Shown here: positions 11,543-60,281 of the stretch, one piece after another
How the letters are laid out: each line of letters begins with the position of its first letter
How positions within the stretch are numbered: position 1 is the first letter of the stretch
Source of the DNA: a virus
Virus genome (UHGV): UHGV-1376088
Length of the DNA: 64,000 bases
Reading direction: 5' to 3' (one strand)
Program-made: the position numbers and the translations under genes
Notes under the pieces: model-generated
Databases searched by the model: none
The model's input: the letters and a program-made list of their open reading frames with translations, nothing else
Told to the model about the DNA's origin: nothing

Positions 11543-11572
11543 GGACCGGCATAATTGTCGGTCCTTTTATGA
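11543..11572 (+). terminator. rho-independent terminator
   Basis: ggaccg-gcataattgt-cggtcc hairpin plus ttttat. Confidence 0.6.
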
Positions 11573-11584
11573 TAAGGAAGAAAT

Positions 11585-12046
11585 ATGAAAAAGAATATTT
11601 TTTGGATTGAAAAGACAACATTCCCAAAATGCAAAGAAGAAGTATTTTTCTCAAAAGGCCTAAATATTATAACCGGAGATAACAACTCTGGCATTTACTC
11701 CCATGCTTCTCACCTTTCGGCTTTAGACACCAATGATCATATTGATATTTGGAGAGATTCATTTGCACATAGTCTGCATCCGACTCAATTAAAAATGGAG
11801 GCGGGCTTTATAATAGAAAATGTGGCCAGAGGTTTGCAAGCAATCGTATTTACAGACTCTCTATTTATGATGAGAGAGCTGTATCTTCTGGCACATGGAA
11901 ATAATTTCCCAATAAGATATATTAACCTTTATTTTGATAAAAACGAATTAAAGGTTGAGCAGGCCGATTCTATTGATGAGATTAACCATCTGTCTCTTCT
12001 TGACGAGAATCTTGATCAATCTGAAAGATATCTAAGAATTCCATAA
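11585..12046 (+). CDS. hypothetical protein (tandem paralog A)
   Basis: Shares 'IVFTDSLF..ELxLLA....YxNLYF' and more with the next ORF; SD 'aaggaag'. Confidence 0.5.
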   Translation: MKKNIFWIEKTTFPKCKEEVFFSKGLNIITGDNNSGIYSHASHLSALDTNDHIDIWRDSFAHSLHPTQLKMEAGFIIENVARGLQAIVFTDSLFMMRELYLLAHGNNFPIRYINLYFDKNELKVEQADSIDEINHLSLLDENLDQSERYLRIP

Positions 12047-12073: not shown

Positions 12074-12574
12074 ATGAACTATCTTGACTGTGAATATGCC
12101 AATGTTGCTGATAATGGAACTGGTGAAATAAAATTTCCACGCGACGATAAATTCAGAAAGCTGTCTTCGGCTATCAATATAGTCACAAGTGATTATATGT
12201 ATGATCTGGATAATGTTGCCGACTATCTTAGAAGATTGGATGAATTTCATATCACATATATATGGACTGACTCTAAGAACAGAATGCATCCTACAAATCT
12301 AAAAGACGAAGCCGAGCGTATAATCGCATTCGCAGAAAAAGAGTATCAATGGATTGTTTTTACTGATTCATTATTCTTTGTTAAAGAGCTTAGATTACTG
12401 GCTAAACAGAAAAAATTGGATGTGAAGTATTTTAATCTCTATTTTGAAAATGATTCATTATCTATAGAAGAGTCCGATGATATGTATTCTTTGAGAAACT
12501 TTAGTTTACTAAATGAATCTATTTCTCAATTTCAAAGGGAAATTGATTTAGTTGGCCCGTCTTTTATTGAATAA
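12074..12574 (+). CDS. hypothetical protein (tandem paralog B)
   Basis: Clear similarity to 11585..12046 across ~90 aa; SD 'agagg'. Confidence 0.5.
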   Translation: MNYLDCEYANVADNGTGEIKFPRDDKFRKLSSAINIVTSDYMYDLDNVADYLRRLDEFHITYIWTDSKNRMHPTNLKDEAERIIAFAEKEYQWIVFTDSLFFVKELRLLAKQKKLDVKYFNLYFENDSLSIEESDDMYSLRNFSLLNESISQFQREIDLVGPSFIE

Positions 12575-12589
12575 TTTCAAGGATTAAAA

Positions 12590-12814
12590 ATGACTCCAGA
12601 CACAATTGTATTAATTGGCAAAATCATTGCCGGTCTTGTTGCCGGCTTCATATTTGGCGGATATAAAAATAATTTGTATAAGGCTACATTATATAGCGCT
12701 GCGGCCTTTGTAATAATTACAGTCCTCTCAATTGAACTTGCAGATAGGCAAACGAAATATATTGAAAGCCAACAAGAGCAGTGTGTTAAGGTCTTAGAAA
12801 AGGTTGCAAAATGA
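12590..12814 (+). CDS. small membrane protein
   Basis: Hydrophobic helices; ATGA overlap with the next gene. Confidence 0.4.
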   Translation: MTPDTIVLIGKIIAGLVAGFIFGGYKNNLYKATLYSAAAFVIITVLSIELADRQTKYIESQQEQCVKVLEKVAK

Positions 12815-13239
12815 ACGAAACACAAATACTTGAAAATATTGCAAAATATATTGATAGCAATCCGAAATCCGATTTAAAGGATAAAATTGATGAACTCTTT
12901 AAACTAAATAGATCCATCAGTTCTTCAGAGGCTATTGATATTATAAATAATATCAGGCAAACATTAGGATTGGTTTCTGTACCATTGCCGTTTAGCGTCC
13001 TTTATAAATCATTTACAGAAGACTTTAACAATGCAATAAAAATTAAAATTGCAGATGTTTTTATCAAGACTCCAATTCTTTACGAAATAAATTTAATTAG
13101 ATCTTTGAATGAAGTTCTTGATAAAATTGGCTTCGAAAAATACTATATTATCAAAAAGTTTTTAGGGTCACAAGGCTTTGAGCTTATTGACATAAAAGCT
13201 GTCATCAATAACGCCAATAATAAACTCAAAAGATCTTGA
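12811..13239 (+). CDS. hypothetical protein
   Basis: ORF coupled to neighbouring genes. Confidence 0.45.
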   Translation: MNETQILENIAKYIDSNPKSDLKDKIDELFKLNRSISSSEAIDIINNIRQTLGLVSVPLPFSVLYKSFTEDFNNAIKIKIADVFIKTPILYEINLIRSLNEVLDKIGFEKYYIIKKFLGSQGFELIDIKAVINNANNKLKRS

Positions 13240-13248
13240 GGTATAAAT

Positions 13249-14913
13249 ATGTATATAGTAACAACAGCATTGCCGTATGCAAATGGAGATATCCATTTAG
13301 GTCATATATTAGAGCATATTCAAGCCGATATTTATGTTAGAAGACTTCGTCAATCTTACAATGATGTATATTTTATAGGGGCAGATGACTCCCACGGTAC
13401 TGCTATTGTTTTAGCGGCCGAAAGGGAAGGTATATCCCCAGAAGAACTGATTGAACGTTCGAGAAAAAGACATCATGAAGATATAGCTGGATTCGGCGTA
13501 GAATATGACAATTATTATACTACTCACTCTAAAGAAAATTTTGAACTTGTTAAAAATGCGTATTCTGATCTTGTTTCAAAAGGCCTGATTCGCAGAAAAA
13601 CAATTCAACAATTGTATGATCCGGAAAAAGAAATGTTTCTTCCTGATCGTTTTGTAAAAGGCGAATGTCCTGAATGCCATGCTCAAGAACAATATGGTGA
13701 CAACTGTGACTCTTGCGGTGCCGTTTATGAAGCATATAATCTGATCAATCCGAAATCGACATTAACTGGCGCCACTCCCGTATTGAAAGAGACGGAGCAT
13801 TTGTTCTTGAAAACAAGAATGAAATATAAACTGCTAAGAGAATGGGCTAAGCCTGGCTTTGAAATAAGAATGAATAGAAGTGCCAAATCCAGAATCGAAA
13901 ACTGGATTGGAGAGAATGGTGAAAACCTAAAAGAATGGTGTATCTCTAGGGATGCCCCATACTTCGGATTTAAGATTCCAAATGAAGAAAACAAATATTT
14001 TTACGTTTGGATGGATGCTCCATTTGGTTACATCGCTTCTTACCAAAACTTCCGCAATGCCGAGTTAGAAAAAGGCAACTCTCACCACAAACATGAAAAG
14101 TGTGCAAATCTTGTCCACTTTGTAGGAAAAGATATTTTACGGTTTCATACCATATTTTGGCCAATTGTTTTAGATGCTACGAATTTGAATCTGCCTTATA
14201 AAATATTTAGCCATGGTTTTGTTACTGTAAATGGCGAAAAAATGTCCAAATCGAAAGGGACATTTATTACTGCTAGAAAATTTTTGGATTCAGGAATCGA
14301 TCCGGAGCTTTTACGTTATTACTTTGCATCTAAACTTGGAAATAACGAAAAAGATGTTAACTTCGATATCGAAGACTTTGTAAGAACCATTAATGATGAT
14401 TTGATAGGAAAGCTGATAAATATTCCATCTCGCTTGGGCGCTATAATTAATAAGGCTTATGGCGGAAGAATTATAAGACCAGCCTGTTATGAAAATGATG
14501 AAAATGGTTCATATGCAATGTCGTCTTTGTCCGTTATACCTTATTTGGAGATATCAATTAATGGCGGTGATTATGCTACCGCAATCTCCCATGCATTAAA
14601 TATTGCAGCTAGAATTAATAATAGGATAGAATCTCTAAAAATATGGGAAGCAATGGATAAAAATTGTGATGACTTTAGGAAGTCTACTCTTCATGAGCAC
14701 TGCTCTGAAATGCTGATTCTGATACTTTTTGTATTTCAAGCATTAAGTCCAATTATGCCAAAGCTTTACGACAAATTTTTGCAATTTATGAACATTCTGG
14801 ATCCAAAGCTTCCATATGATCAAATCTCCGAAGATGGACACTATATCAATGAATATGAGCATTTACATAAACGGCTTGTATTGTTGGAAGTAAAATCTAA
14901 ACTTCTGGATTAA
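13249..14913 (+). CDS. metG: methionyl-tRNA synthetase (class I aaRS)
   Basis: 'ALPYANGDIHLGH' HIGH motif; zinc knuckle 'CPECHAQEQYGDNCDSCGAVY' (compare E. coli MetRS CPKC...C..CG); 'KMSKSKGT' KMSKS motif; 554 aa. Confidence 0.85.
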   Translation: MYIVTTALPYANGDIHLGHILEHIQADIYVRRLRQSYNDVYFIGADDSHGTAIVLAAEREGISPEELIERSRKRHHEDIAGFGVEYDNYYTTHSKENFELVKNAYSDLVSKGLIRRKTIQQLYDPEKEMFLPDRFVKGECPECHAQEQYGDNCDSCGAVYEAYNLINPKSTLTGATPVLKETEHLFLKTRMKYKLLREWAKPGFEIRMNRSAKSRIENWIGENGENLKEWCISRDAPYFGFKIPNEENKYFYVWMDAPFGYIASYQNFRNAELEKGNSHHKHEKCANLVHFVGKDILRFHTIFWPIVLDATNLNLPYKIFSHGFVTVNGEKMSKSKGTFITARKFLDSGIDPELLRYYFASKLGNNEKDVNFDIEDFVRTINDDLIGKLINIPSRLGAIINKAYGGRIIRPACYENDENGSYAMSSLSVIPYLEISINGGDYATAISHALNIAARINNRIESLKIWEAMDKNCDDFRKSTLHEHCSEMLILILFVFQALSPIMPKLYDKFLQFMNILDPKLPYDQISEDGHYINEYEHLHKRLVLLEVKSKLLD

Positions 14914-14948: not shown

Positions 14949-16217
14949 ATGGAAAATATTTATCAAGTGGCAAATGGTGTCGTTAAGTTCGACAAGGATA
15001 TTGACCCTAATCTTTACAAAAAGAATTTGCCTGCCGGCTTTTATACAACGGCCTCATCCAGAGAGAGTGTATTCTTGAAGCAAACCGAACCTTTGACAAT
15101 TCCATCTAAGGTTTATGGCGATTCGACTGATCGTATGAATCGAATTGTTAAGTCTTTTGAAGCTTCCAATAAGAATCTTGGCGTGCTGCTTTATGGTGAA
15201 TCCGGTTCCGGTAAATCTCTATTGGCTAAACAAGTTTGCATTAAACTTTCAGAAGAATATCCGATTATTATTGTGTTGCCAGAGCATATCGATATCATTG
15301 AAAAATTCATTGAAAATATTGATGACCGATGTGTATTTTTCATTGATGAATTTGAAAAGATGTTTGAAAAGCCATCATATCAAAGCGGACTGTTGAGCGT
15401 TATTGATGGAACAAGTTCTAAAAAGAATTTATTCTTGTTCACAGCTAATGAAAAAGGCATGATTAATAAGTTCTTCTTTAATCGCCCGGGACGTATTCGT
15501 TATGCTTACGAATATGATACCTTGCCGGATTCTGTTGTTTTAGAAGTTCTGGAAGATATTCTGGATAATAAAGGTAAGGTAAAAGAAATTGCATCTATTA
15601 TCTCCTATCTGAAGGAACCATCATTCGATGTTGTTTGCAGTATTGCGCAAGAAGCAAATTTATATCCAGATTTTACTATTCAGCAGTTGATGGATGGATA
15701 TAACTCAGAGATCTACTCTGAAAGCTTAATGCATTCCGACTGTACATTATTTATAAATGGGCAAGATTTTTATTCGGCATTCAAAGAATTGTTCTCAAAA
15801 TACGGTTTAAATCTTCAAGATTGCAATCCGTCCTATATTGCCAGTGAATCTGCAATTGAATTGAAAGAACAATCTTTAAATCCGTACGAGCCAAAAACAT
15901 CACTGAATGTAATAGACTATTCTATGCGGGCATTTTGTGATGGTGCCAAACGGAGTTACATTATATGTATATACCTCGATATTTCGAAAATGGAATTAGA
16001 GGTTAAGGATAGAACCTCTATTATTAGCAATGTTCGAATTTCTGAAGAGGAAATCGGTAGCACTGCAGAAATGATCCTGCACTTAATGCAAACTCTGAAT
16101 AAAGAGGTTCCGGATTCTGTAAAAGAAGAAGTGTATAATATTCTCAGTTCAAATGATGTGAAATTGGTAAGTAAGCCTGCACAAAAGCTGAAGATTAATA
16201 CATTTGGCCGTTTTTAG
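14949..16217 (+). CDS. AAA-family ATPase
   Basis: Walker A 'GESGSGKSLLAK', Walker B 'VFFIDEFE', sensor 'NRPGRIRY'. Confidence 0.6.
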   Translation: MENIYQVANGVVKFDKDIDPNLYKKNLPAGFYTTASSRESVFLKQTEPLTIPSKVYGDSTDRMNRIVKSFEASNKNLGVLLYGESGSGKSLLAKQVCIKLSEEYPIIIVLPEHIDIIEKFIENIDDRCVFFIDEFEKMFEKPSYQSGLLSVIDGTSSKKNLFLFTANEKGMINKFFFNRPGRIRYAYEYDTLPDSVVLEVLEDILDNKGKVKEIASIISYLKEPSFDVVCSIAQEANLYPDFTIQQLMDGYNSEIYSESLMHSDCTLFINGQDFYSAFKELFSKYGLNLQDCNPSYIASESAIELKEQSLNPYEPKTSLNVIDYSMRAFCDGAKRSYIICIYLDISKMELEVKDRTSIISNVRISEEEIGSTAEMILHLMQTLNKEVPDSVKEEVYNILSSNDVKLVSKPAQKLKINTFGRF

Positions 16218-17515: not shown

Positions 17516-17704
17516 ATGGAACTAAAAGAAAATGGAGTTTACCGCCACTATAAAGGCGGAGAATACAAATTAATAACTATTGGTGAACTTGAACACGACT
17601 TATCTCAAGTCGTTGTCTATAAAAGCATCACTAATGATAGAGTTTTTGTAAGACCTTTAGAGGAATTTGAAGATAAATTCGAATTCCTATATATGGGAGG
17701 GTAG
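17516..17704 (+). CDS. DUF1653-like small protein
   Basis: 'YRHYKGGEYKLI...VVYKS...VFVRPLEEFEDKFEF' matches the DUF1653 pattern; SD 'aaagg'; 3' end overlaps the tRNA start. Confidence 0.4.
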   Translation: MELKENGVYRHYKGGEYKLITIGELEHDLSQVVVYKSITNDRVFVRPLEEFEDKFEFLYMGG

Positions 17705-17772
17705 CTCAGTGGTCCGAGAGCGGGCGACTCATAATCGCTTGGTCACGGGTTCGAATCCCGTCCTTCCCACCA
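17695..17772 (+). tRNA. tRNA-Met/Ile2 (anticodon CAU)
   Basis: Acceptor gggaggg/ccttccc; D-arm gctc-agtggtccga-gagc; anticodon loop cuCAUaa; T-loop ttcgaat; CCA encoded. Confidence 0.8.
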
Positions 17773-18304: not shown

Positions 18305-19882
18305 ATGGCATCACCATTATTTAAAACTTCTCGTATCAATGTCTCTACGGGAGCATCTGTATCTGTACAGTCCAATAAGGTTAATACAACAAATGAATCC
18401 GGCGGCACTGCTTATGCTATGACACATCAGCATGCCCTTGCGCAATATGCTGTAACCGGTATGCTTGACGGCTATCTTCATGTTGATGGTCGAACTCAGC
18501 TGTCTCGTATTATTGAGCTGGCTGAAAAATGTAACAATAAGTATGTTGCGCAAGTTGCAATTTATGCCCACGAAAAAGGCTTCATGAAAGATACTTCTGC
18601 TTTGTTGCTGGGATATCTGATGAAAAAAGACCGCGATTTGTTTAACGCAATTTTTAAACGTATCATTACAAATGGCCGAATGTTAAGAACTTTCGTTCAA
18701 ATCATTCGTTCCGGTACTTTTGGCAATCGCAGTTTTGGTACAAATGCCAAACGCCAAATCCAAGATTGGCTAAATTCCGCAACAGACAAAACAATTATTA
18801 ATGCCTCCATTGGTAATGATCCGTCTCTGAAAGACATTATCAAAATGGTTCATCCAAAAGCACCAAATGAAAATCGTAACCAACTTTATCGTTGGGTTTG
18901 CGATATGGATTACCAGGAAGATAAACTTCCTGAACAGCTTCAACTGTATTTAAAATTGAAGCGTAATCCAGAAAAAGCAGAAGAACTGCCGGATTTGCCG
19001 TTCCAAATGTATACCTCTATGGGTTTAACAACAGAAGGTTGGAAACATATTGCTAATAATGCGACATGGAATCAGACCCGTATGAACTTGGCAACATTTG
19101 AGCGACATGGTGTATTTGGTGATAAAAGTTTTGCCGACAGAATTGCTGAGAAGCTTACATCTGAGCGTGATATCATTCGAAGTAAAGCTATGCCATTTGC
19201 CATTTTCTCTGCCTTTAAAAAGGCGGGCGATATTAGCTATAATATCCGCAAGGCTTTGAATAAAGCTGCAGAAATTTCTCTGCAAAATGTTCCGAAATTG
19301 GAAGGTAAAACAGTTGTTGCTGTTGACCGTTCTGGATCTATGTCCAGTCTGATTAATAGTCGCTCAACTGTTCGTGTAATGGATGTTGCAGCTGTTCTTG
19401 TTGCTGCTTTGAAAAACAAAAATCCAGATTTGGAAATTGTTTTATTCAATGACACAGCGTCCATTTATAAGCCAAAAGGCAAAACTCTTTTTGGTATCAG
19501 CGAAGAGCTTTCTCGTATGGCAAGCGGCGGAACAGATTGTGGTGCCGCAATGAAGTTTATCAAAAACCGGTACACAGATAAAGGCATGCCCGATAATATC
19601 ATCATGATTTCAGACAATGAATCATGGTTAGGTATGAGCAAGAATTTCTGGACATCCACAGGAACAGTTGAACAACTGAAATTAATTCGTCGTTCAAATC
19701 CTAATACCCGAATGATCAATATTGACGTAACTCCAGGTTCAAGTTCACAAACAGTTCCTGAAGAATACGTACTAAATATCGGCGGCTTTAATGACGCAGT
19801 ATTCCAAATCGCATCATTGTTCTTTAATTCTAAAGGCAATAAAGACTTTTGGATTTCTGAAATTAATAAAGTAGAAATTTAA
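18305..19882 (+). CDS. rsr: Ro60 ortholog (Rsr-like; TROVE domain + C-terminal vWA/MIDAS)
   Basis: ~525 aa; C-terminal vWA with MIDAS 'VVAVDRSGSMSS'; N-terminal helical TROVE-like region; SD 'aaggaa' before ATG (the track start 18287 is a TTG); followed by tRNA-like Y-RNA candidates. Confidence 0.65.
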   Translation: MASPLFKTSRINVSTGASVSVQSNKVNTTNESGGTAYAMTHQHALAQYAVTGMLDGYLHVDGRTQLSRIIELAEKCNNKYVAQVAIYAHEKGFMKDTSALLLGYLMKKDRDLFNAIFKRIITNGRMLRTFVQIIRSGTFGNRSFGTNAKRQIQDWLNSATDKTIINASIGNDPSLKDIIKMVHPKAPNENRNQLYRWVCDMDYQEDKLPEQLQLYLKLKRNPEKAEELPDLPFQMYTSMGLTTEGWKHIANNATWNQTRMNLATFERHGVFGDKSFADRIAEKLTSERDIIRSKAMPFAIFSAFKKAGDISYNIRKALNKAAEISLQNVPKLEGKTVVAVDRSGSMSSLINSRSTVRVMDVAAVLVAALKNKNPDLEIVLFNDTASIYKPKGKTLFGISEELSRMASGGTDCGAAMKFIKNRYTDKGMPDNIIMISDNESWLGMSKNFWTSTGTVEQLKLIRRSNPNTRMINIDVTPGSSSQTVPEEYVLNIGGFNDAVFQIASLFFNSKGNKDFWISEINKVEI

Positions 19883-19996: not shown

Positions 19997-20073
19997 CTAA
20001 GTGTAGCGCAGTCCGGTAGCGCATCTGCTTTGGGAGCAGAGGGTTGCAGGTTCGAATCCTGCCTCTTAGACCA
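19997..20073 (+). tRNA. tRNA-Pro (anticodon UGG)
   Basis: D-arm gcgc-agtccggta-gcgc; anticodon loop uuUGGga; T-loop ttcgaat; one U-U mismatch in the acceptor; CCA encoded. Confidence 0.7.
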
Positions 20074-20086
20074 CATTACAATTTTC

Positions 20087-20210
20087 GGGTGGTTAGTTTA
20101 ATGGGAAAACATTAAGTAATCTTTCTACTATTGTCTGAAAAGAATGCTTGAGAGATTTACATTTCACGGCTAATGAAAAGATACAGGTTCGAGTCCTGTA
20201 CCACCCTCCA
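20087..20210 (+). ncRNA. tRNA-like RNA (Y RNA / YrlA-like candidate) with ~47-nt insert in place of anticodon arm
   Basis: Perfect 7-bp acceptor gggtggt/accaccc; D-arm gttt-aatggga-aaac; canonical T-arm acagg-ttcgagt-cctgt; CCA; 124 nt total with no canonical anticodon stem-loop. Confidence 0.5.
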
Positions 20211-20215
20211 TATAT

Positions 20216-20357
20216 GGGCTGTTGGCGAAATTGGTAGACGCAAGGGTCATTTATAACCTATCAAACTTGTCCGATAGGAATGCCGATAGGTTTACATTTT
20301 TAAATTGAAAACTTAAGGACAACCCTCGATTTGCAGGTTCGACTCCTGCACAGCCCG
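20216..20357 (+). ncRNA. tRNA-like RNA (Y RNA / YrlA-like candidate) with ~65-nt insert in place of anticodon arm
   Basis: Perfect acceptor gggctgt/acagccc; class-II-type D-arm gcg-aaattggtaga-cgc; T-arm gcagg-ttcgact-cctgc; long-range helix agggt...accct enclosing ~72 nt with internal hairpins (cctatc/gatagg, ccgatagg repeated twice). Confidence 0.5.
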
Positions 20358-21413: not shown

Positions 21414-21506
21414 GCTCCCGTACCATAAAAGGATAATGGAACTGACTTCTAATCAGTAAGCCAAACGAAGGCGAGTATGCGGGTTCGAGTCCTGCCGGGA
21501 GTGCCA
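21414..21506 (+). tRNA. class-II-shaped tRNA with anticodon UCU (Arg codon AGA), long variable arm, G73
   Basis: Acceptor gctcccg/cgggagt; D ccat/atgg; anticodon stem actga/tcagt with loop cuUCUaa; 21-nt variable arm with gcc/ggc hairpin; T-loop ttcgagt; CCA encoded. Confidence 0.6.
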
Positions 21507-21870: not shown

Positions 21871-22075
21871 GACATAAACTGCCTGGCATGATGCAGTTTT
21901 AACTATCTAATCTGCCATTATTATTCTCAGTCTGGCATTCGCCAAAATGTTGCCGCATTTTGAGAATGATAAAATCATAGATGGTTATTTTCTGGTCCTA
22001 GCAGTCAATTTAGTTGACCCAGTACACTGTAAGCTGGAACTAAAGATAACGATTTAAACCCTGTTCTCCCTAAGC

Positions 22076-22146
22076 AATAATGTAGTTCAGTGGTAGAGCG
22101 TCTGCAATTTGGCAGAATGGCGGTGGTTCGATTCCACCCTTTATTG
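22076..22146 (+). tRNA. tRNA-like gene with non-canonical (6- or 8-nt) anticodon loop, identity undetermined (UUU/UUG region)
   Basis: Acceptor aataatg/ctttatt (6/7 pairs); D gttc-agtggta-gagc; stem tctgc/gcaga around 'aatttg'; T-arm ggtgg-ttcgatt-ccacc; one nt shorter than canonical; possible pseudogene or frameshift-type tRNA. Confidence 0.4.
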
Positions 22147-22631
22147 ACGAGAACAGGTACTCAATTTAATAATGAATCTTTATTCAGATTCATTTAGTCT
22201 GACAATGGTGTGATGAAATCTTAAGGGCTGTTCTTTGGATATTCTTAGTCTAATATTGAAATGTGCATTTCTTTATTGGGCTCTGTTTTATTTGAAGATA
22301 AAGCTTAAAAGGTTGCGATAGCAATAAAAACAATAAGGTGTTGCACAGCGCCTGTTTGGAGTATATTGTGAATGCTTGCACGTGTGCCGCGGAGGTACAA
22401 GGTTCCCGGAGTGGGATAAGTCAGACTAAATGTATTTGAAGCTAATTAAAGCTTAAAGATTTAAGCCCTGCTGATTTCTTATATAATATTGTTTATTATG
22501 ATTATTCTTATATTAGATAAATACTATTTTATCTTTTTCATTTTTCAGCAGGCATATTTAAGCCCTATTAGTTTATTCCGCAATATAGCTAAAATATTGT
22601 TCTAAAAATTAATAGGCAAAATAAAGATTAT

Positions 22632-22706
22632 AGCGAATTGGTGTAATTGGTAACACACAGGGCTCATAACCCTGAGTTATAGGTTCGAGTCCTATGTTCG
22701 CTTCCA
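22632..22706 (+). tRNA. tRNA-Met/Ile2 (anticodon CAU), second copy
   Basis: Acceptor agcgaat/gttcgct; D gtgt-aattggta-acac; anticodon stem caggg/ccctg with loop cuCAUaa; T-loop ttcgagt; CCA. Confidence 0.8.
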
Positions 22707-25689: not shown

Positions 25690-25780
25690 ACCACCTTAGC
25701 TTAATGGTAAAGCAGCGAGCTTATACCTCGTAACGACAGATAATCGGCTGATCTGGGTTCGAGTCCCGGAGGTGGTACCA
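25690..25780 (+). tRNA. class-II-shaped tRNA with anticodon UAU (Ile AUA), long variable arm
   Basis: Acceptor accacct/aggtggt; D gctt-aatggta-aagc; anticodon stem gcgag/ctcgt with loop cuUAUac; ~21-nt variable region; T-loop ttcgagt; A73; CCA. Confidence 0.55.
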
Positions 25781-43929: not shown

Positions 43930-44649
43930 ATGCAAGGCAAAATTAATATTGAAGTTTTGAGTCAAGACAAAGCTATTATCCATGTTCAGGATCTGCAAGG
44001 TAAATGCACATCTAAAATGGTTACAACAAAAGCTGCCGCTGCGGCTCTGGCTGGCCCTAATGGTGAAGCTAAAGATTCTGGATTGATCCCCCAAAACATT
44101 TTAAGAATTTGGGAGAATTCACAATACAAGGGCTATTTGATTTATCAGCCGTCTAGAATGTTTGGCATTAAATATGAAGGAAGGTCATTGCGCCAAGTCA
44201 AACTTCCTGGAATTGTTATGAAAGCAGTTGTGAATTCAAGAGGGCAATTTATCGGCGATAGAAGCTCTATCTTTATTTGTAATGGCGATGAAATCAAACC
44301 CGATACAAAACTTTGGCATTTACGAATGAACAATTATAGCTCCGGTTATGGTATTTGCTGGGGCGATAATAAGAATATTGCAAATTCGATTCTAGCTAGT
44401 GGAAACCTATTTGATATTGAGCAGCTCCCGCAATTATTCTTTGGATCAACATTTAACTCGGATTTGGATAATACATATATCTTTGACAATTCCATGTTAA
44501 GAAGAATTAATGAAAATCCTTCAATTCCTAATCATAGAAATTTAACAGTTCAATTTTTTACATTGAAAGGGTTAGAGAATGAAGATTATAATCTGGAATC
44601 CGAATTAATGACCGAATATGATGCGGTTCTTAGCGGCATTATGATGTAA
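43930..44649 (+). CDS. hypothetical protein
   Basis: SD 'aaaggaag'. Confidence 0.45.
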   Translation: MQGKINIEVLSQDKAIIHVQDLQGKCTSKMVTTKAAAAALAGPNGEAKDSGLIPQNILRIWENSQYKGYLIYQPSRMFGIKYEGRSLRQVKLPGIVMKAVVNSRGQFIGDRSSIFICNGDEIKPDTKLWHLRMNNYSSGYGICWGDNKNIANSILASGNLFDIEQLPQLFFGSTFNSDLDNTYIFDNSMLRRINENPSIPNHRNLTVQFFTLKGLENEDYNLESELMTEYDAVLSGIMM

Positions 44650-44677: not shown

Positions 44678-46054
44678 ATGAGTTTGAGCGTTGCTGATCT
44701 GATGGGCGAAATGGATTTTCGTTTGCCGAAGGTTGTACAAAGCAAAGAAGAAGCAGAAGATGGCGATTCTATTGTAGCTGAAGACGGTATCTATAAATTG
44801 GTCCGCGCCATTATTGGTGACTTCTGGATTAAGGCAGAAAGCTTTAAGACTAAGATGGTTGGAATGCCGCAGCTGTCAGAAAGCTTTACACAGTCATCTG
44901 AAATTCCTAAAATCCCAGGTGAATTGTTTTACGGTATTATCAGATTCTACCGTAAAATTTACGAAACAAATAAAAATGAAGTGATGGCCCAGATTTGGTG
45001 GGATAAAGAAGAGCGCAAATTCCTGGTTGAAGTTCCAGAACAAGAAGTTGCAGGTGCTTCTATTACTTATCAAAGAACCGGCGGATGGTATGATGATCCT
45101 AATAAGGTCCTTGTATTGACATCTCACTCACATCATACAATGGGTGCATTCTATTCATCCGTAGACAATTCAGATGAAAAAGGCAAACATGGAATTTACT
45201 CATTTGTATTTGGCAATTTAGTAAATAAGCCTGACGGAACATTTACATATAAAACCGTTCAGCGCGTATGCTGTGCAGACGCATTAATTCCATTACAGCT
45301 GGAAGATATTTTTGATTTTACCGAAGGTTGCGAATTTCTTTTCGAAATCCCAGAAGAGGATTACGCAAAAGTTAAAGCTAAAGTTTATAACTATGGAGCT
45401 TATGCTAATTATGGCAAATCTAAATCAAAGGGGTTTCCTTACACGGGCGGCCAATCAACTCCCGCAAACGTCTCAAAAATCGAAGACAACTATGAATTTT
45501 ACTCAGGATATCTGGGTTATTCTTACGGGAGTTATGACAGCGCTTGGGATTCTGTGGATTATCCTAACAATGCTTCAACTGTAGGATCAAGCGCTATAGA
45601 AAAACGATGGCAAACTGGTGCTGAAGCCACGGTTGACAGAGTTAAATATGGATATATTTCCTCTATACTGAGAGGAATGTCCAAGCCTGGCGATGAGCTC
45701 CTGTATAACTATTTTGAATTCAAAGAAATTGAATCTATTGTTTCTGATTTTGTAAATGCTGTAAGCCTGCCGGAAACACATCCGTATTATATGTTCGCAG
45801 AGCTTCTGAACTCATTTATGTCTAATCTTTTGGAAGGTCTTTCAGATGTACAATATGGTGATCGTGAAGGGCTTAGCAAAATTGAAGATCCATCAAAAGC
45901 ATTTGCCGTTGTGATTGCATCTGCTATTAGTGGTGTGGAGGATTCTTTTAATAGTATGGCTTCTCCTAATAGCGCTGTTGACCTTATGAAAGACCATAAT
46001 TTGAGCTTTTTGTATCTACCAGAACGAATTGCCGCTTATTTAAAAGATTTTTAA
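44678..46054 (+). CDS. JAB/MPN (JAMM) metalloprotease-domain protein
   Basis: 'SHSHHTMGAFYSSVD' = JAMM motif HxHx7Sx2D; 458 aa with an uncharacterised C-terminal half. Confidence 0.6.
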   Translation: MSLSVADLMGEMDFRLPKVVQSKEEAEDGDSIVAEDGIYKLVRAIIGDFWIKAESFKTKMVGMPQLSESFTQSSEIPKIPGELFYGIIRFYRKIYETNKNEVMAQIWWDKEERKFLVEVPEQEVAGASITYQRTGGWYDDPNKVLVLTSHSHHTMGAFYSSVDNSDEKGKHGIYSFVFGNLVNKPDGTFTYKTVQRVCCADALIPLQLEDIFDFTEGCEFLFEIPEEDYAKVKAKVYNYGAYANYGKSKSKGFPYTGGQSTPANVSKIEDNYEFYSGYLGYSYGSYDSAWDSVDYPNNASTVGSSAIEKRWQTGAEATVDRVKYGYISSILRGMSKPGDELLYNYFEFKEIESIVSDFVNAVSLPETHPYYMFAELLNSFMSNLLEGLSDVQYGDREGLSKIEDPSKAFAVVIASAISGVEDSFNSMASPNSAVDLMKDHNLSFLYLPERIAAYLKDF

Positions 46055-46066
46055 AGGAAATACCTT

Positions 46067-46969
46067 ATGCAAAATGCTGTACTTGGCAGAAAGAAAATTG
46101 AATTTATTTCAACTCAAGATGAAATCAATAAGCATCAGAAAGAAGTTGAAGATTACGAAATGACAAAATTAATGCAACGTCTTTCGTCCGCCGAAACTAA
46201 TGCTCCTAAAAAGCCGCTTGACCGCATTGTTGTTGTTGGTTGTGGCGGAACTGGCTCTTGGTTAATTCCAAAACTTGCAAAAACCATCAATGATATGAAG
46301 CGCAAGAAATTACTTGCTAATCATTTTTCTTTGATTCTTGTTGATGGCGACCAAATTGAACCTAAAAATTTGATTCGGCAGAACTTTGTTGAATCAGATA
46401 TTGGTAAAAATAAAGCGGAAATCATGGCTCTTCGATATGGGGCAACGCTTAAAGATATTAATGTCCAATATATCGACAAGTATTTGACCGATAAGTCAAG
46501 TTTTGACACTAATCACTTTTCCCATATCAATGTTTTGCAGAATATGATTTACGATGACAATTATTGTGTCATATTCAATCTTGTTGATAACCAAAATGCA
46601 AGACGCGCGGTTCACTCATTACAGTTCTGCGGCTGGATTGTTGATATTGGTAATGAACTGGCACATGGCCAATTGTTTGCAACTCCATATGGTTTGACTA
46701 GTGGCTTTATTGGATCATTAAGCTTCTTCACTATGTCTCCGGAAACGTTGACGGCAGATGAAGAAGTGAAAATTTATTCTTGCGCCGAAGCCGATGCGGA
46801 TACAGAGCTGGAAGAACAGTTCTTGGTTGCCAACGATACAGCTGCTTTGGTTGGACATAACTGGCTATGCTCTTTAATGAGCGGTCCAGATGTAGTTCCT
46901 GCAAGAATTAATTTTACATGCTTGCCAATTCCGACCGTAGAAACAGTGTTGAAAACAATCCGGTTTTAA
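46067..46969 (+). CDS. E1-like (ThiF/MoeB family) adenylyltransferase
   Basis: Rossmann 'RIVVVGCGGTGSWLI'; 'LILVDGDQIEPKNLIRQ' matches the E1 DxD...NLxRQ motif. Confidence 0.6.
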   Translation: MQNAVLGRKKIEFISTQDEINKHQKEVEDYEMTKLMQRLSSAETNAPKKPLDRIVVVGCGGTGSWLIPKLAKTINDMKRKKLLANHFSLILVDGDQIEPKNLIRQNFVESDIGKNKAEIMALRYGATLKDINVQYIDKYLTDKSSFDTNHFSHINVLQNMIYDDNYCVIFNLVDNQNARRAVHSLQFCGWIVDIGNELAHGQLFATPYGLTSGFIGSLSFFTMSPETLTADEEVKIYSCAEADADTELEEQFLVANDTAALVGHNWLCSLMSGPDVVPARINFTCLPIPTVETVLKTIRF

Positions 46970-47024: not shown

Positions 47025-48566
47025 ATGGAAGATAAAAATTTGTGTTTGAGCTTTTTAGCGCCTATGATGAATTTGTCTCAAACATTTTTAAATATTATCG
47101 AAAAAATTGAAAACGAAGAATGCTCTATTGACTCTTCGTTTCCTGAAAAGTTATTCAATAAGACGCCAAAAGAAGATGTTTTAAACGCGATTGAAACTCT
47201 CATTGATTATAATAATTTATTTTTGATTGACTTTGATGAGTATTCGAAAAAAGTAAAAACCTTATCAGATTTCGTTGGTAATTGTAACAACACAATTCTT
47301 TTCAGAAACTTTAGAACTGATAAGGGTCGTGAAGTTTGCTATATCAATAAGCAGATCCCAGACATTTATTCAGATAGGATTAAAGAGATCCATTCTAATA
47401 TTAGACCCTTAATAGGCCGCCTAACTCCTAGACTGAATTTAATTAAAAATCAGAATTCTACAGATTCATATGTAGACATTAATTACGATCAGATGGCCAT
47501 CAAATCAGATATTTCTTCGTTCTTTCGCTCTGTAAGATTTGAAAATGTTATTAAATACCTCTCTAAGACTTTCCTTGTTAAAAATATACTTATGTATAGC
47601 AAAAGTCAAACTGAAAACAAAGAGCTTAGAGTATTTGAGCGAATTGAAATTGCTTTATGGGGATTTATTAGTTGTCTATTCCATAATGGTATTATCCCTA
47701 CTGGAGCTAGATATGCAAATGATTTAGCCGCCTGCTATTTGAATAATCTTGTTTTTAATACCTTTAGAAAGGACATGCTATATTCGAATCGTGCAAGAAT
47801 CTATGTATATGTAGATGACCTGCTCTTTCTCGGAGAGGAAGGCAATGTTAAAGAATTTTATGCGGAATTCGAAAAGGCTATCAATAAAGGCGGACTATAT
47901 CTGAATTATAAGAAGACTCAATATTTTTATCCTAAAAATGGAATTCTTGAGTATTCTTCTTTGGGCAGAACTAGAAAATTTGACTTCACAACTGGTTTTG
48001 TTTCTAAAGTTGATTCGAAAGCCCGCAAAAAATGTTTGGATATTATTAAAGAGCGCCGCGAATACGATGCCTCTGAGAAGGGTATCATTAATTATGCATT
48101 ATATATGAGGCATGGAGCCAATAAGATTGTCAATCCAGATATATTAATGCATTCTTATTTTAATGATAAATCCGAACTGTGGGATAAACTTATAGCAGGT
48201 GAATTGAATCTGAAATTGAATAAGAGTATTTTTGATCCCACTAATCTGAAATATAAGGATATATGTATAATGTCAAAAGATATTGATGTCGGTTTTCTTT
48301 CCGCTCATCAATTCCTTGACATTACAGATGCGATAGCAGAATTTGTAAAACTGTTTATCCTCGACAATCCTTTTGGTCTTAACCTATATGGAATTAATCT
48401 AACAGAATCCAATGAGGGTAATTATAATTTAATTCTGAATTTGGTAAGACAACGATCCAGAGGCACTGCGAATATAATCCCATGTCCTTTAATTTTCAGA
48501 AAAGATTTCCTAAACGGACTTTATGTAGAAGGCAAAGATGAAAGCGCTTTAAATGGATGGATATAA
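47025..48566 (+). CDS. reverse transcriptase (standalone, unclassified)
   Basis: Motif A 'IKSDISSFFRSV', motif B' 'GIIPTGARYANDLAACYLNNL', motif C 'YVYVDDLLFLG', motif D 'LYLNYKKTQY'; extra N- and C-terminal regions; SD 'aaggaag'. Confidence 0.7.
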   Translation: MEDKNLCLSFLAPMMNLSQTFLNIIEKIENEECSIDSSFPEKLFNKTPKEDVLNAIETLIDYNNLFLIDFDEYSKKVKTLSDFVGNCNNTILFRNFRTDKGREVCYINKQIPDIYSDRIKEIHSNIRPLIGRLTPRLNLIKNQNSTDSYVDINYDQMAIKSDISSFFRSVRFENVIKYLSKTFLVKNILMYSKSQTENKELRVFERIEIALWGFISCLFHNGIIPTGARYANDLAACYLNNLVFNTFRKDMLYSNRARIYVYVDDLLFLGEEGNVKEFYAEFEKAINKGGLYLNYKKTQYFYPKNGILEYSSLGRTRKFDFTTGFVSKVDSKARKKCLDIIKERREYDASEKGIINYALYMRHGANKIVNPDILMHSYFNDKSELWDKLIAGELNLKLNKSIFDPTNLKYKDICIMSKDIDVGFLSAHQFLDITDAIAEFVKLFILDNPFGLNLYGINLTESNEGNYNLILNLVRQRSRGTANIIPCPLIFRKDFLNGLYVEGKDESALNGWI

Positions 48567-54475: not shown

Positions 54476-56233
54476 ATGGACTTTGTATCCACTCCTGAAA
54501 ATCCAAATGGTGATATTAAACCCGAAGATATCGGGAAGTATACGAATTTACATGCTCATAGCATTTATAGTCCTTTAGATGGCTTCGGTAAGCTTGAAGA
54601 ATATTGCGAACGGGTAAAAGCTCTAGGGATGAAAGGCTTATGCCTTTCTGAACATGGCAATATGATTGGTCATCATGAACAGGCTAAGATTTGTGCTAAG
54701 CATGGCATTAAGCCTATTTTTGCTAATGAAGGGTATATGACTCTTCATGCCGGATCTATTAAAGAAAAGATAGAGGGTTATAAGGCGAACTATCATATTT
54801 TGCTTATTGCTATTAATGAGCAGGGTTATAGAAACCTTATGAAAGCTACATCTATTGCTTGGACACGTTATAAATATTATAAGCCACGCTTTGATTTAGC
54901 ACTTCTTGAAGAATGCAACGAGGGCCTGATTTGTACATCTGCTTGTCTTGGCGGACCAATTAATCAGTTATATTTAGATGGCCGACCTGAAGAGGCTGAA
55001 CAGGTTGCGCTAAAGCTGAAAGAGATTTTCGGCGATAGATTTTATTTGGAAAAAACTTATACCGGCTTAGAAGAGCAAGATATTGCTAATAAGAATTTGG
55101 TTGAGATTTCTAAAAAGCATAATATACCTATGATTATTACTTGTGATAGTCATTATGTTTATCCTTGGCAATCTGATAGTCATGCAAAATTGGTTATGGT
55201 TAATACTGGCGGTCAAATCAATAAAGCGATTAAGGCTGCCGGCTTAACTGACTCTAGCAAAGAAGATGCTGACGTAGATAGCAACTCTATGTTCTATCAG
55301 CCTAGTCAGTATTATGTTAAACCACATCATGTATTGGTTGAAGAATATTATTCTAATCCTGAAGATGAAGAAGCCTTTGCCAATACTAATAAAATTGCAG
55401 ATATGTGCAATGTGGTTTTACCTAAAAATGAAGACATCATTTTTCCTTCACCATATTCTGATCCCGATTCTGTTTTAAGAGGACGGGCAATGCAATGGTA
55501 TTCGGAATACTCTAAAAAACTTTCTGATGAACAAAAAGCATTGTATTTAGATAGGCTGGAAGAAGAGCTGGATATGTATTCTAAAATGGGCTTTAGTTCT
55601 TATCCTTTGGTGCTGCAAGAGATTCTTGATGAAGCCAAAGCGAAAGGCATTATGATTGGCCCTGGCCGAGGATGCCTATTTGAGGGAACTAAAGTTCTAA
55701 TTAATAGATCCGGATCCATATATTATTGTCCGATTGAATTTGTCAAAGTCGGCGATATGGTATGGACACATAATAGCAGATGGAAGTCTGTATATCATAC
55801 CACTAAATATGTTGTAGACTATAGAGATATGGTTACTCTCGAGACAGAATATGGTATGATGCACCTCACAGAAGACCATAAAGTAAAAACAAAAAACCAT
55901 GGATTTATCCCTGCTATTGAATTAGACGGACAAATACACACACTGGATAGAGGAACTTTATCCGATGAAATTCTGTCTAAAGTTGAAGATTATAAAACCG
56001 ATTCAATCGAAAATTTTGAACTTTCTAGCTTCTATAATGAGGATGAACCTGTAAGGGTTTATGATCTTATGGTTGATGAAGATTGTTCTTTTAGAACTAA
56101 TATCTGTATGGTGCACAATAGTGCCGCGGGGTCTTTACTCTCTTATGCATTAGGTATTACTGCTATTGACCCTATACCATATGGACTAATGTTCAGTCGT
56201 TATCTTAACGCCGGACGCGCAAAACTACCGGTT
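54476..56233 (+). CDS. dnaE: DNA polymerase III alpha (DnaE) exon 1: PHP domain through the GPGRG...SAAGS...LNAGRAKLPV region, containing a mini-intein
   Basis: PHP 'NLHAHSIYSPLDGFG...CLSEHGNMIGH'; 'GIMIGPGRG[intein]SAAGSLLSYALGITAIDPIPYGLMFSRYLN'; homology to E. coli '...ERVSMPDFDVDFC' ends at ...KLPV; the ORF then reads 18 non-homologous codons to a stop at 56287. Confidence 0.8.
55673..56119 (+). other. mini-intein (Hint domain, 149 aa, no homing endonuclease) in DnaE
   Basis: Inserted between GPGRG and SAAGS; begins 'CLFEG' (Cys1) and ends 'VHN' followed by Ser+1; length consistent with a mini-intein. Confidence 0.7.
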
Positions 56234-56290
56234 ATTGAAATTAAAGGCTACCCATTAAAAGAGTGGCTAACAACAGAAAGAAAATAAAAA

Positions 56291-57654: not shown

Positions 57655-58770
57655 ATGTATATTCTTAGTATTGTATTCAGTAATCATTGTGATTTGGATT
57701 GTTCTTATTGCTGCATACAGTCTAAGAATATGTCTCCTGTATTGGCGAATTTAGAACAGATTAAAGATTTCATTAGAAAATATGCAAAGACAGGATCCAT
57801 TGTTGAATTTTATGGAGGTGAACCTACCCTTCATAAAAAAGAGCTATTTGATATCATCAATTTCTGTAGCTCTCTTGATATGGACATTGGCACTAGGCTA
57901 TATACTAATGGATTATTTGCTAACTGGACAGAGGAAGAGATTCTTTCTCTGTCTTACATTTTAGATGAAGTTCTCATTTCTCTTGATGGATCTACATTTG
58001 AAGAGAATAAACAGCGCTTTGAAAATCAGGCCCAGTTTGATGCTGTCCTGAATAATATTAAAACAATGCGAAAATCTGAGGATTTGAACATTACTTTAAG
58101 TTCTGTTTTATATGGTCGATCCAAATTTGAGAATATGTTCTCTAATTACAAATTCTTTTCGGCGCTTGGTGTTGATACCTTTAGCTATGAGCCGGTCACT
58201 ATATATAGGACAGACAAAGCTGTTATTATCCCTAGGGATTTCTTTGGTGCTTTATTTAAGGGCATTATGGAAATTTCTAGGGACATTTTTATTTCCGGAA
58301 AAGAGCGATCTTTGTTTGTAGCAAAAGAACTGTTAGCTGCTTCTTGGTATCATCAGGGAGACAAGGATTTATGTTCTAAGAACGTAAGAGCCATTTCTCC
58401 GCGCGGCAATATTTATATGTGTCGTGATCATGCAGCTAATGAAGAAGAGATGTTTTATTCTCCTAAAGTTATTCAGTTCTTTAATAAGAATAACCTGAAG
58501 TCAGATAATGAATCATTCCCACTAGTGGAAGAAAACGAAAAAGACTTAACGCATTGTCCTGTTAAAAATATACAATACAGACAAGCTGGTGTTGAAAAGG
58601 ATCTATACTGGTTATCTGATTCGTGGCAAGATTTTGTAGTAAAACCTATGTATTCTACGATTCTTGCTGTAAACTCTCAGGCCGATAATCTGTCTGAAAT
58701 AATTGATTATTTTTATCCTAAAGTTGATGAGTTATTAAAAATAGCTATTAGTCAGGAAGGAATTAAATGA
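57655..58770 (+). CDS. radical SAM / SPASM-domain enzyme (anSME/PqqE-like peptide-modifying maturase family)
   Basis: 'SNHCDLDCSYCC' = CX3CX2C; 'VEFYGGEPTLH' SAM-binding GGE motif; additional C-terminal Cys cluster (CSKN...CRDH...HCPV); 371 aa. Confidence 0.7.
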   Translation: MYILSIVFSNHCDLDCSYCCIQSKNMSPVLANLEQIKDFIRKYAKTGSIVEFYGGEPTLHKKELFDIINFCSSLDMDIGTRLYTNGLFANWTEEEILSLSYILDEVLISLDGSTFEENKQRFENQAQFDAVLNNIKTMRKSEDLNITLSSVLYGRSKFENMFSNYKFFSALGVDTFSYEPVTIYRTDKAVIIPRDFFGALFKGIMEISRDIFISGKERSLFVAKELLAASWYHQGDKDLCSKNVRAISPRGNIYMCRDHAANEEEMFYSPKVIQFFNKNNLKSDNESFPLVEENEKDLTHCPVKNIQYRQAGVEKDLYWLSDSWQDFVVKPMYSTILAVNSQADNLSEIIDYFYPKVDELLKIAISQEGIK

Positions 58771-59687: not shown

Positions 59688-60281
59688 ATGGTTTTAGTGC
59701 GAAAAGCAACAGAGGCAGACTTTGAATGGCTCGTAGAGTGCTCAAATAAAGATTGGGTTATTAACGATTACAGCGGAACCTTTAGGGACTGGCTAAAAAG
59801 CTTTGGTGTTGCAGACGAAGAATTGGATAAATGTTATAACTTTGATTGGTTTAAAAAATACATTTATCCAAAAGCTCCTCAGGATTTATATATAGTAAAT
59901 AACGGACAAAAGGACGTTGGATTTTTCTGTCAAGATTTGGATCAAACAAATTCAATTATTGGCGGAACCGTATTCTTACATCCTCGTTCATGTAAAATGT
60001 CTATCCTTAAAGCTATTAAGGCTATCTGTATTCGGGCTTGTTTAATCCAAGATGAATTCGATGCGTGTGAGGTAAATACATGGACTCCACTTATCGTTTC
60101 TACTGCCCAATCCGTTGTTCCTTGCTTAAAAGAGAGCATGATCGCTGAAGAGTACCGAATTCTTTACGGTGAAACAAGAAACTTCCCAACAAAGGAAGAT
60201 ATTATTAAAAAATATAACGTTACAGATATCGATAAGGATAACTGTTTTGTTTTTGATGAGGTAAGAAGACATGGAGCTTGA
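59688..60281 (+). CDS. hypothetical protein (possible GNAT-like)
   Basis: ORF overlapping the next gene by 11 nt; weak acetyltransferase-like features only. Confidence 0.4.
   Translation: MVLVRKATEADFEWLVECSNKDWVINDYSGTFRDWLKSFGVADEELDKCYNFDWFKKYIYPKAPQDLYIVNNGQKDVGFFCQDLDQTNSIIGGTVFLHPRSCKMSILKAIKAICIRACLIQDEFDACEVNTWTPLIVSTAQSVVPCLKESMIAEEYRILYGETRNFPTKEDIIKKYNVTDIDKDNCFVFDEVRRHGA

Follow-up and report, generated by a model that had tools for sequence, protein, structure and literature searches.

We report that a gene at positions 13249 to 14913 of a 64,000-nucleotide stretch of the virus genome UHGV-1376088 (the whole of which is called the window below) encodes a methionyl-tRNA synthetase (MetRS), and we consider it quite likely that this is an active, accessory enzyme that belongs to the phage itself. 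Aminoacyl-tRNA synthetases (aaRS) of phages are known mostly from genomes above 200 kb, and functional evidence for them is scarce. The landmarks of the gene are the following:

13238..13241, + strand: GAGG Shine-Dalgarno sequence, 7 nt 5' of the MetRS ATG and overlapping the TGA stop codon of the upstream open reading frame (ORF)
13249..14913, + strand: MetRS coding sequence with ATG start, 554 amino acids (aa) plus stop; monomeric core type
13294..13305, + strand: HIGH signature H16-L17-G18-H19, corresponding to E. coli H21-H24
13666..13716, + strand: zinc knuckle C140-P-E-C143 ... C153-D-S-C156, corresponding to E. coli C145/C148/C158/C161
14239..14253, + strand: KMSKS signature K331-M-S-K-S335, corresponding to E. 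coli K332-S336
14368..14910, + strand: helical anticodon-binding domain, residues ~374-554, with N391, R395, N457 and W466 corresponding to E. coli N391, R395, N452 and W461

The initial annotation had described this ORF as a MetRS with HIGH and KMSKS signatures and a zinc knuckle, had proposed an alignment to MetRS families as a check and had named loss of catalytic residues as what would speak against it. The identification stands, as the motifs align with those of the E. coli enzyme and one Pfam and two NCBIfam models score above their cut-offs. The Pfam model tRNA-synt_1g (PF09334) matches residues 2-395 (3.3e-137, 457.9 bits against a cut-off of 20.1), and the NCBIfam models TIGR00398 and NF001100 score 491.5 bits (cut-off 336.35) and 596.3 bits (cut-off 587), respectively. 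When PDB sequences were searched with phmmer, the best matches were monomeric constructs of E. coli MetRS (residues 3-549 against 8-540, E ~5e-141), and identity to the E. coli crystal constructs is ~42% from end to end. The exact protein is deposited in NCBI nr as DAD57452.1, 'MAG TPA: methionyl-tRNA synthetase [Bacteriophage sp.]'; the protein as such is thus already known and correctly annotated as a phage MetRS.

Catalytic residues are retained at every HIGH, KMSKS and methionine-pocket position compared. From the alignment with E. coli MetRS we mapped 29 functional positions comprising HIGH, KMSKS, the cysteines that bind zinc, the residues of the methionine pocket and those that contact the anticodon; each position, methionine-pocket residues included, is given the role of its counterpart in the E. 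coli enzyme. At 28 of the 29, the window protein and five members of its clade (P0001-P0005), which have diverged to 57% identity, carry the identical residue. The sole change, from E. coli D456 to glutamate (E461 in the window protein), is conservative and found throughout the clade, while the methionine pocket (E. coli L13, Y15, D52, W253, A256, P257, Y260, H301 and W305) is unchanged, and HIGH and KMSKS are invariant across the phage clade and 16 aligned homologues.

The enzyme had also been called full-length, and here the claim has to be divided: the core looks catalytically intact, but the protein is not full length, a C-terminal domain being missing. The NF001100 match spans profile positions 7-532 of 676, and the protein ends opposite approximately residue 540-550 of E. 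coli MetRS (677 aa) and opposite residues 550-555 of homologues of 684-707 aa. PF01588, the C-terminal tRNA-binding and dimerisation domain, occurs in all full-length cellular neighbours listed and in none of the phage-clade members. Without PF01588 and with an end point at ~540-550, the phage protein therefore corresponds to the M547/M551 monomeric core of E. coli MetRS that served in crystallography and not to the full-length enzyme of its relatives. It shares with that core (PDB 1QQT, 1F4L, 3H9C) the domain order, the single functional zinc knuckle and the end point of the engineered or proteolytic monomer; the truncation, however, is artificial in E. coli, whereas in the phage it is natural and conserved across the clade, and the phage protein differs further by the D456E change and by loops at residues 276-284 and 415-425. 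Among cellular enzymes, the dimeric MetRS of beta- and gammaproteobacteria (NF001100/PRK00133; for example Neisseriaceae, Vitreoscilla, Sulfuricella, Vibrio) come closest, with 41-47% identity, but they measure 680-710 aa and carry PF01588, whereas the phage proteins measure 554-557 aa and lack it. Mellot et al. in 1989 and Crepin et al. in 2002 are said to have found that the truncated E. coli monomer stays active. In some MetRS the C-terminal domain serves dimerisation and strengthens the binding of tRNA; 1QQT shows the E. coli enzyme in a monomeric form (PMC13215547).

As Pfam reported no separate match to an anticodon-binding domain, the structure of the phage protein was modelled. The AlphaFold model has a predicted local distance difference test score (pLDDT) of 84.1 and a predicted template modelling score (pTM) of 0.85; its residues 374-553 form helices, for the most part at pLDDT >85, and align structurally with E. 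coli MetRS in Foldseek. The top Foldseek matches in the PDB were all E. coli MetRS, with template modelling (TM) scores of 0.85-0.87 over the full length. Judged by its sequence and predicted fold, the phage protein is a single-zinc-knuckle class Ia MetRS of the E. coli/proteobacterial type cut to the monomeric core, with a predicted Rossmann catalytic domain, a connective peptide bearing the zinc knuckle, the KMSKS region and a helical anticodon-binding domain.

That the gene is encoded by the phage, as the initial annotation had it, is borne out by gene content, strand bias, gene order on many contigs of 173-189 kb, IMG/VR entries and nucleotide composition. The window has 81 ORFs of 70 aa or more, and all but one of them (80) lie on the + strand. 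The window encodes rIIA, a Ro60-like protein, dihydrofolate reductase (DHFR), thymidylate synthase (ThyA) and DNA ligase, together with RecA, RuvC, a Whirly-like single-stranded-DNA-binding protein, a repair exonuclease and a PHP fragment of Pol III alpha, and the orthologues of ORF 6249-7016 on related contigs have the T4 rIIB Pfam domain; no virion genes were found within the 64 kb. The conserved gene order runs rIIA, rIIB, a YadA-like gene, small ORFs, MetRS, an AAA ATPase, nicotinamide phosphoribosyltransferase (NAMPT), RNase H and Ro60, followed by tRNAs, and the order around MetRS is kept in IMG/VR as well as on contigs of 174-186 kb that originate from Logan, ENA and JGI (the last a Human Microbiome Project sample). 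Contigs of the MetRS-carrying phage group measure 173-189 kb, and one related record is labelled human oral metagenome. In composition the MetRS gene matches the rest of the window, with a GC content of 0.356 against 0.353, a GC content at third codon positions (GC3) of 0.288 against 0.295, and a correlation of relative synonymous codon usage (RSCU) of r = 0.83. Among deposited phages none was similar in DNA apart from tRNA genes. The YadA-like neighbour was found in more than 100 sequence variants on contigs of 177-192 kb, and the phage group, with genomes of about 185 kb, is therefore very common.

The gene is present in some members of this phage group and missing from others, and the polymorphism has defined edges:

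12811..13239, + strand: upstream ORF of 142 aa, left edge of the MetRS presence/absence polymorphism
14949..16217, + strand: AAA ATPase gene (phrog_2376), right edge of the polymorphism

Intact copies are under strong purifying selection. The ratio of nonsynonymous to synonymous substitution rates (dN/dS) lies at 0.07-0.09 for the window gene against its relatives L001, L002 and L004, and at 0.073 for the pair L001/L002, which is recent and unsaturated (dS 0.17). Dozens of contigs, assembled from different samples, carry intact alleles. Side by side with these, the 90%-identity clusters include MetRS fragments that sit on full-length contigs. One allele (L008, on five contigs) carries paired frameshifts (-1/+1), located at nt 129 and 436, another (L011) a nonsense change of Q146 from CAA to TAA, and in a third (L009/L010, on four contigs) the 5' ~600 nt including HIGH are replaced. 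When loci were compared with the AAA ATPase gene as anchor, five related IMG/VR phages of 171-188 kb (L149 and L151-L154) had no MetRS beside it, and a scan for conserved motifs found the gene nowhere on these five contigs. In L149 and L151 the orthologue of the upstream ORF directly adjoins the AAA ATPase gene. The empty site of L151 retains ~27 nt of the 3' coding end of MetRS plus the downstream spacer, and those of L149 and L153 retain the Shine-Dalgarno sequence and codons 1-3 (ATG-TAT-ATC), together with an ORF of 13 codons that ends in VKLN*; the alignment scores of the remnants in L149, L151 and L153 exceed those of all 200 shuffles, and no significant MetRS remnant was found in L152. 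This pattern of remnants favours repeated deletion of an ancestral MetRS gene, which is therefore an accessory gene of conditional use. From the loci compared, MetRS is dispensable and behaves as an optional auxiliary gene, and because so many related phages have deleted or disabled it, any benefit must be small or dependent on context.

We infer the following role for the enzyme. MetRS is probably co-transcribed with the surrounding early or middle genes during infection, the monomeric enzyme would activate methionine with ATP by ordinary MetRS chemistry, and it would transfer the methionine to any tRNA with a CAU anticodon, that is to host tRNA-fMet, host tRNA-Met and, where present, a phage tRNA of initiator type. 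The outcome would be a supply of Met-tRNA that is raised or sustained for both initiation and elongation of phage proteins, with a benefit that is likely conditional and not essential. Phage aaRS have been proposed to charge phage tRNAs (PMC7162821), which is compatible with such a role. In the vicinity, the only strong terminator-like hairpin (11543-11564) lies upstream of the MetRS gene block, and no convincing terminator was found between 11585 and 16217.

Several observations weigh against an active, beneficial enzyme. MetRS is missing in five of the nine IMG/VR group members examined and truncated in one more. Loss of the C-terminal domain is expected to lower tRNA affinity relative to the host enzyme (PMC13215547, citing Crepin 2002). 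To these points can be added the silence of Pfam on the anticodon-binding domain and the two loops at residues 276-284 and 415-425, which are clade-specific and of low confidence in the model. A promoter scan was uninformative, with 29 sites against 32 expected by chance. Taken with the motifs, the fold and the selection on intact copies, we nonetheless hold to the reading of an active accessory MetRS.

As the initial annotation had stated, two CAU tRNAs lie in the region of the MetRS gene. They are found 2.8 and 7.7 kb downstream of it, and one of them is of initiator type. Both belong to an array of 14 tRNA genes, and neither is adjacent to MetRS:

17695..17772, + strand: first CAU tRNA, elongator type, with G1:C72, A73 and encoded CCA; 2.8 kb downstream of MetRS
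22632..22706, + strand: second CAU tRNA, initiator type, with G29-G31:C39-C41, A1:U72, U73 and encoded CCA; 7.7 kb downstream of MetRS

The suggestion that such a tRNA might be initiator-like, recognisable by a 1:72 mismatch and a GGG/CCC anticodon stem, came out half right for the second tRNA, which has the stem but, in place of the mismatch, a Watson-Crick though weak A1:U72 pair. Three consecutive G:C pairs in the anticodon stem (29:41, 30:40 and 31:39) are the universal initiator hallmark, and the formyltransferase uses the 2:71 and 3:70 pairs (PMC5389676). The second tRNA shares with bacterial tRNA-fMet these three stem pairs and the pairs G2:C71, C3:G70 and G4:C69; it differs by A1:U72, by U73 instead of A73 and by U11:A24 instead of A11:U24. 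The A73 discriminator and A11:U24 are typical of initiator tRNAs. Its G29-G31:C39-C41 stem is also present in L004, L018, L026 and all nine other family members. In the L004 orthologue the anticodon stem-loop equals that of E. coli tRNA-fMet at 17 of 17 positions and the T stem is fully covaried. A pattern scan of IMG/VR returned 13 distinct members of the family, all of which keep the GGG:CCC stem and the 2:71-4:69 pairs. Nine of them come from other phages; here A73 is found in 9/9 and a 1:72 mismatch in 8/9 (C-A, C-U, A-A or G-A), with U1:A72 in the remaining one. A1:U72 together with U73 occurs only in the four members from the present phage group. We conclude that the second tRNA is, on its base pairs, an initiator-type tRNA with an atypical acceptor end.

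The first CAU tRNA has G1:C72 and no GGG:CCC stem and is therefore not an initiator. Its positions 27-48, which cover the anticodon stem-loop and the variable loop, are identical to those of E. coli ileX (tRNA-Ile2) at 22/22 positions, and it carries the CAU anticodon, A37, A38, the pairs C29:G41 and U12:A23, which count among the identity elements for IleRS, and A73; this identity set was reportedly worked out by Nureki et al. in 1994. The acceptor-stem pairs C4:G69 and C5:G68, determinants for TilS in E. coli, are replaced by A4:U69 and G5-U68, which is not decisive against tRNA-Ile2 because TilS determinants vary between bacteria. Overall identity is nearly equal for ileX (0.74) and metT (0.71). 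The tRNA is thus probably a tRNA-Ile2, with elongator tRNA-Met as the remaining alternative; an unmodified Ile2 tRNA would likewise be a substrate of MetRS. Naming the CAU tRNAs from database labels was rejected as a guide, since near-identical tRNAs are called tRNA-Met in some records and tRNA-Ile in others.

MetRS and the initiator-type tRNA are distributed independently, and all four combinations occur. In the tRNA pattern search, which demanded an exact match at 22 specified bases, both genes were present in the window and in L004, MetRS without a match to the tRNA pattern on the contigs of L001, L110 and L111, the tRNA without MetRS in L151 and L152 (L018 and L026 stem from these two contigs), and neither in L149, L153 and L154. 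In L003, which lies on the same contig as L110, there is no CAU tRNA between Ro60 and DHFR. We rejected on these grounds a co-adaptation in which the U73/A1:U72 tRNA would need the phage MetRS, given that L151 and L152 have the tRNA only and several MetRS-positive contigs have no pattern match. No further aaRS was seen in the 64 kb window or in the ~20 kb loci around MetRS in relatives, and no genes for formyltransferase, deformylase or TilS were present among the ~50 largest ORFs of the window. The view that the gene is a hallmark of giant-virus-like translational autonomy is not supported by this comparison: MetRS stands alone as an aaRS in the stretches covered, many sister phages lack it or have a broken copy, and its occurrence is independent of the initiator tRNA.

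A more ambitious proposal, which we regard as rather unlikely, joins the shortened MetRS and the atypical tRNA of initiator type (A1:U72, U73) in a toolkit for taking over or protecting translation initiation. If true, the toolkit would provide fresh Met-tRNA(i) when toxins destroy or block the host initiator tRNA or, alternatively, would allow initiation with a tRNA that is handled differently by formyltransferase, EF-Tu or peptidyl-tRNA hydrolase. Either part would then persist solely in phage lineages under such pressure from their hosts, and this would explain the mosaic of presence and absence. In its specialised form, as a counter-defence module, MetRS and the phage tRNA would sustain initiation when the host depletes or blocks tRNA-fMet or Met-tRNA-fMet, for example through VapC-type nucleases that cut tRNA-fMet or acetyltransferase toxins that act on Met-tRNA-fMet, with a benefit limited to hosts having them. 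The initiator-type tRNA does lie in the same early region, and a benefit that depends on the host would agree with the patchy occurrence of MetRS. Moreover, phage tRNAs have been proposed to counter host tRNA nucleases, and because phages generally avoid encoding tRNA-fMet, a phage initiator tRNA is unusual (PMC10264068); both points speak for such a module. However, the two genes are distributed independently of each other, neither formyltransferase nor deformylase is among the ~50 largest ORFs of the window, and the anticodon loop CUCAUAA is the same as in E. coli tRNA-fMet, and therefore gives no sign of nuclease-escape mutations. We consider this specialised version unlikely.

A second alternative takes MetRS for a decaying relic, useful in an ancestor and now drifting to loss without current function. 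The deletion remnants, of at least two kinds, and the three kinds of inactivating lesion in close relatives would be expected of such a gene. Intact copies diverged to 57% identity nevertheless keep 28/29 functional residues, dN/dS is ~0.07 even in the recent pair (dS 0.17), where neutral drift would bring it near 1, and intact alleles persist on dozens of contigs from different samples, which makes a mere relic very improbable.

Slightly more improbable still is a non-canonical or moonlighting role, in which the protein would be a tRNA-binding decoy, a regulator, an inhibitor-resistant variant or a user of methionine analogues. The long branch of the phage clade, its specific loops at residues 276-284 and 415-425, the clade-wide D456 to E change and the loss of the accessory C-terminal domain could all be read in this way, but all residues compared in the methionine pocket, the ATP signatures and the other anticodon contacts are unchanged, the model matches the E. 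coli MetRS structure from end to end and nothing indicates an altered specificity.

An exhaustive HMMER scan of 1.84 billion representatives placed the phage clade in a single 50%-identity cluster (943 bits), with the next match at 476 bits and 46% identity. In a scan of 185,579 species genomes the closest MetRS had 44% identity, and matches at 41-44% were spread across many beta- and gammaproteobacteria. In a neighbour-joining (NJ) tree, computed on a reduced sequence set, the phage MetRS are monophyletic (50/50 bootstraps) on a long stem and sister to a group with sequences of Neisseriaceae, Methyloversatilis, Casimicrobiaceae and E. coli. These data indicate that the gene was acquired once and long ago, from a beta- or gammaproteobacterial lineage, by the ancestor of a human-oral phage group with genomes of ~175-190 kb; as the tree nests the phage clade in no single bacterial family, no specific donor can be named. 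Neisseriaceae had been suggested as donor or host by the top matches of a word-indexed search, which is not supported by the broad 41-44% matches and the tree. Likewise, the YadA-like protein does not identify a host, its best cellular matches being scattered over adhesins of Moraxella, Bartonella and Campylobacter at 31-39%.

Few deposited phages have a MetRS, in line with the rarity that had been stated of phage synthetases in general: any match was found in 25 of 50,697 phage records, among them four Escherichia records of ~108 kb, and the latter apparently carry the metG of the host. We looked at one of the four, phage Cyrano, where the 677-aa gene adjoins a divergent gene for a Mrp/MinD-family ATPase, an arrangement that we take to be the native metG-apbC order of E. 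coli and hence host DNA; we accordingly discarded these records as a precedent for a phage aaRS. With Cyrano as the example, the ~41%-identical MetRS of all four records appear to be host metG, and by the same reasoning the ~41% matches in isolate-derived prophage predictions of IMG/VR are presumably host metG too. That the window gene is likewise bacterial, through misassembly or host DNA in a viral bin, is what these four records might suggest, yet this is effectively refuted by its same position and phage flanks in independent JGI, ENA, Logan and IMG/VR assemblies, by its phage-like composition and by the lack of anything above 44% identity in the 185,579 species genomes.

Phage aaRS are a kind already known (PMC7162821; PMC13359090). 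The present gene resembles the aaRS that huge phages encode (Al-Shayeb et al. 2020, PMC7162821), and likewise the metG of Microcystis phage MaAM05, in being a cellular-type aaRS that stands beside a tRNA array in a tailed-phage genome and is related to bacterial enzymes yet distinct from them. In contrast to the huge phages, the present genome is <200 kb, MetRS is the sole aaRS in the stretches searched, and natural presence/absence and pseudogene variants are documented. Identity to the MetRS of MaAM05 and of 635 kb phages is only 23-27%, and the present gene was therefore acquired independently. What is new is a MetRS clade that is specific to phages, shortened by nature and carried by a common oral phage of less than 200 kb, a documented series of MetRS loss and decay, and an atypical tRNA of initiator type. 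Close relatives with intact, frameshifted, nonsense, 5'-deleted and cleanly deleted MetRS, with and without the phage initiator-type tRNA, amount to a natural experiment, and such an allele series makes the usefulness of a viral aaRS directly testable. The phage enzyme is an example of a naturally minimised MetRS, and translational autonomy of the phage is not supported.

Around the MetRS gene, some further features deserve mention. The YadA-like gene at 7083-9385 (+) encodes a trimeric autotransporter adhesin with head, stalk and anchor and is followed by a BamE-like lipoprotein; the adhesin is hypervariable, its more than 100 variants showing 89-96% identity. Just downstream of the hairpin at 11543-11564, the ORFs 11585-12046 and 12074-12574 (+) are adjacent paralogues that share the motif IVFTDSLF..ELxLLA and have no Pfam match. 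On the other side of MetRS, the stretch from the AAA ATPase (or MetRS) to Ro60 contains a PRPP-synthetase-like ORF, NAMPT and RNase H in the relatives L002, L003 and L004, for example at 12985-15368 of L002; the corresponding interval of the window holds no ORF of sufficient length for NAMPT. This set is a second variable accessory module, for NAD salvage, in the MetRS region.

The tRNA array has peculiarities beyond the CAU tRNAs. Just downstream of the Ro60/vWA gene (18305-19882) and tRNA-Pro (19997-20073) lie two tandem tRNA-like RNAs (20087-20207 and ~20216-20357, +) with normal acceptor, D and T arms and ~45-65 nt in place of the anticodon loop. Their inserts share the motif TTGTC...GAATGC...TTTACATTT, and the first of the two RNAs, which folds with z = -2.8, is kept in L001, L003 and L004, where base changes in its acceptor and T stems compensate each other. 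They are candidates for Y-RNA-like partners of the phage Ro60 or for tRNAs with an unusual intron; the Rfam model YrlA matched the tRNA-like RNAs beside Ro60 only below threshold (17.8 bits against a gathering score of 69). Both tRNA-Arg(UCU) (21414-21506, 93 nt, +) and tRNA-Ile(UAU) (25690-25780, 91 nt, +) have long, class II-like variable arms that are unusual for these bacterial isotypes; the former measures 92 nt in L003 and L004 and 77 nt in L001, and the latter would overlap functionally with the Ile2-type CAU tRNA. To the tRNA at 22075-22148 (+) ARAGORN could assign no anticodon (output 'tt'), and its anticodon loop is an apparent 6 nt (AATTTG) between the stem strands TCTGC and GCAGA; at the matching position L004 has a normal tRNA-Lys(UUU), and the window copy may be a defective or frameshift-prone tRNA-Lys.

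Further downstream, all on the + strand, genes for a Prok-E2_D-like (43930-44649), a JAB-like (44678-46054) and a ThiF/E1-like protein (46067-46969) lie ahead of an ORF (47025-48566) that has a reverse-transcriptase domain (PF00078, 5e-9). The segment 43930-48566 looks like a ubiquitin-like conjugation set plus reverse transcriptase inside a phage. The Pol III alpha homologue at 54476-56287 (+) comprises the PHP domain and, of the polymerase core, only the initial part (positions 66-106 of the 260 in PF07733), so that the polymerase looks split or interrupted. Finally, the replication module includes a radical SAM enzyme (57655-58770, +) and a spermidine-synthase-like protein of methyltransferase fold (60271-60945, +), which could serve nucleotide or DNA modification.

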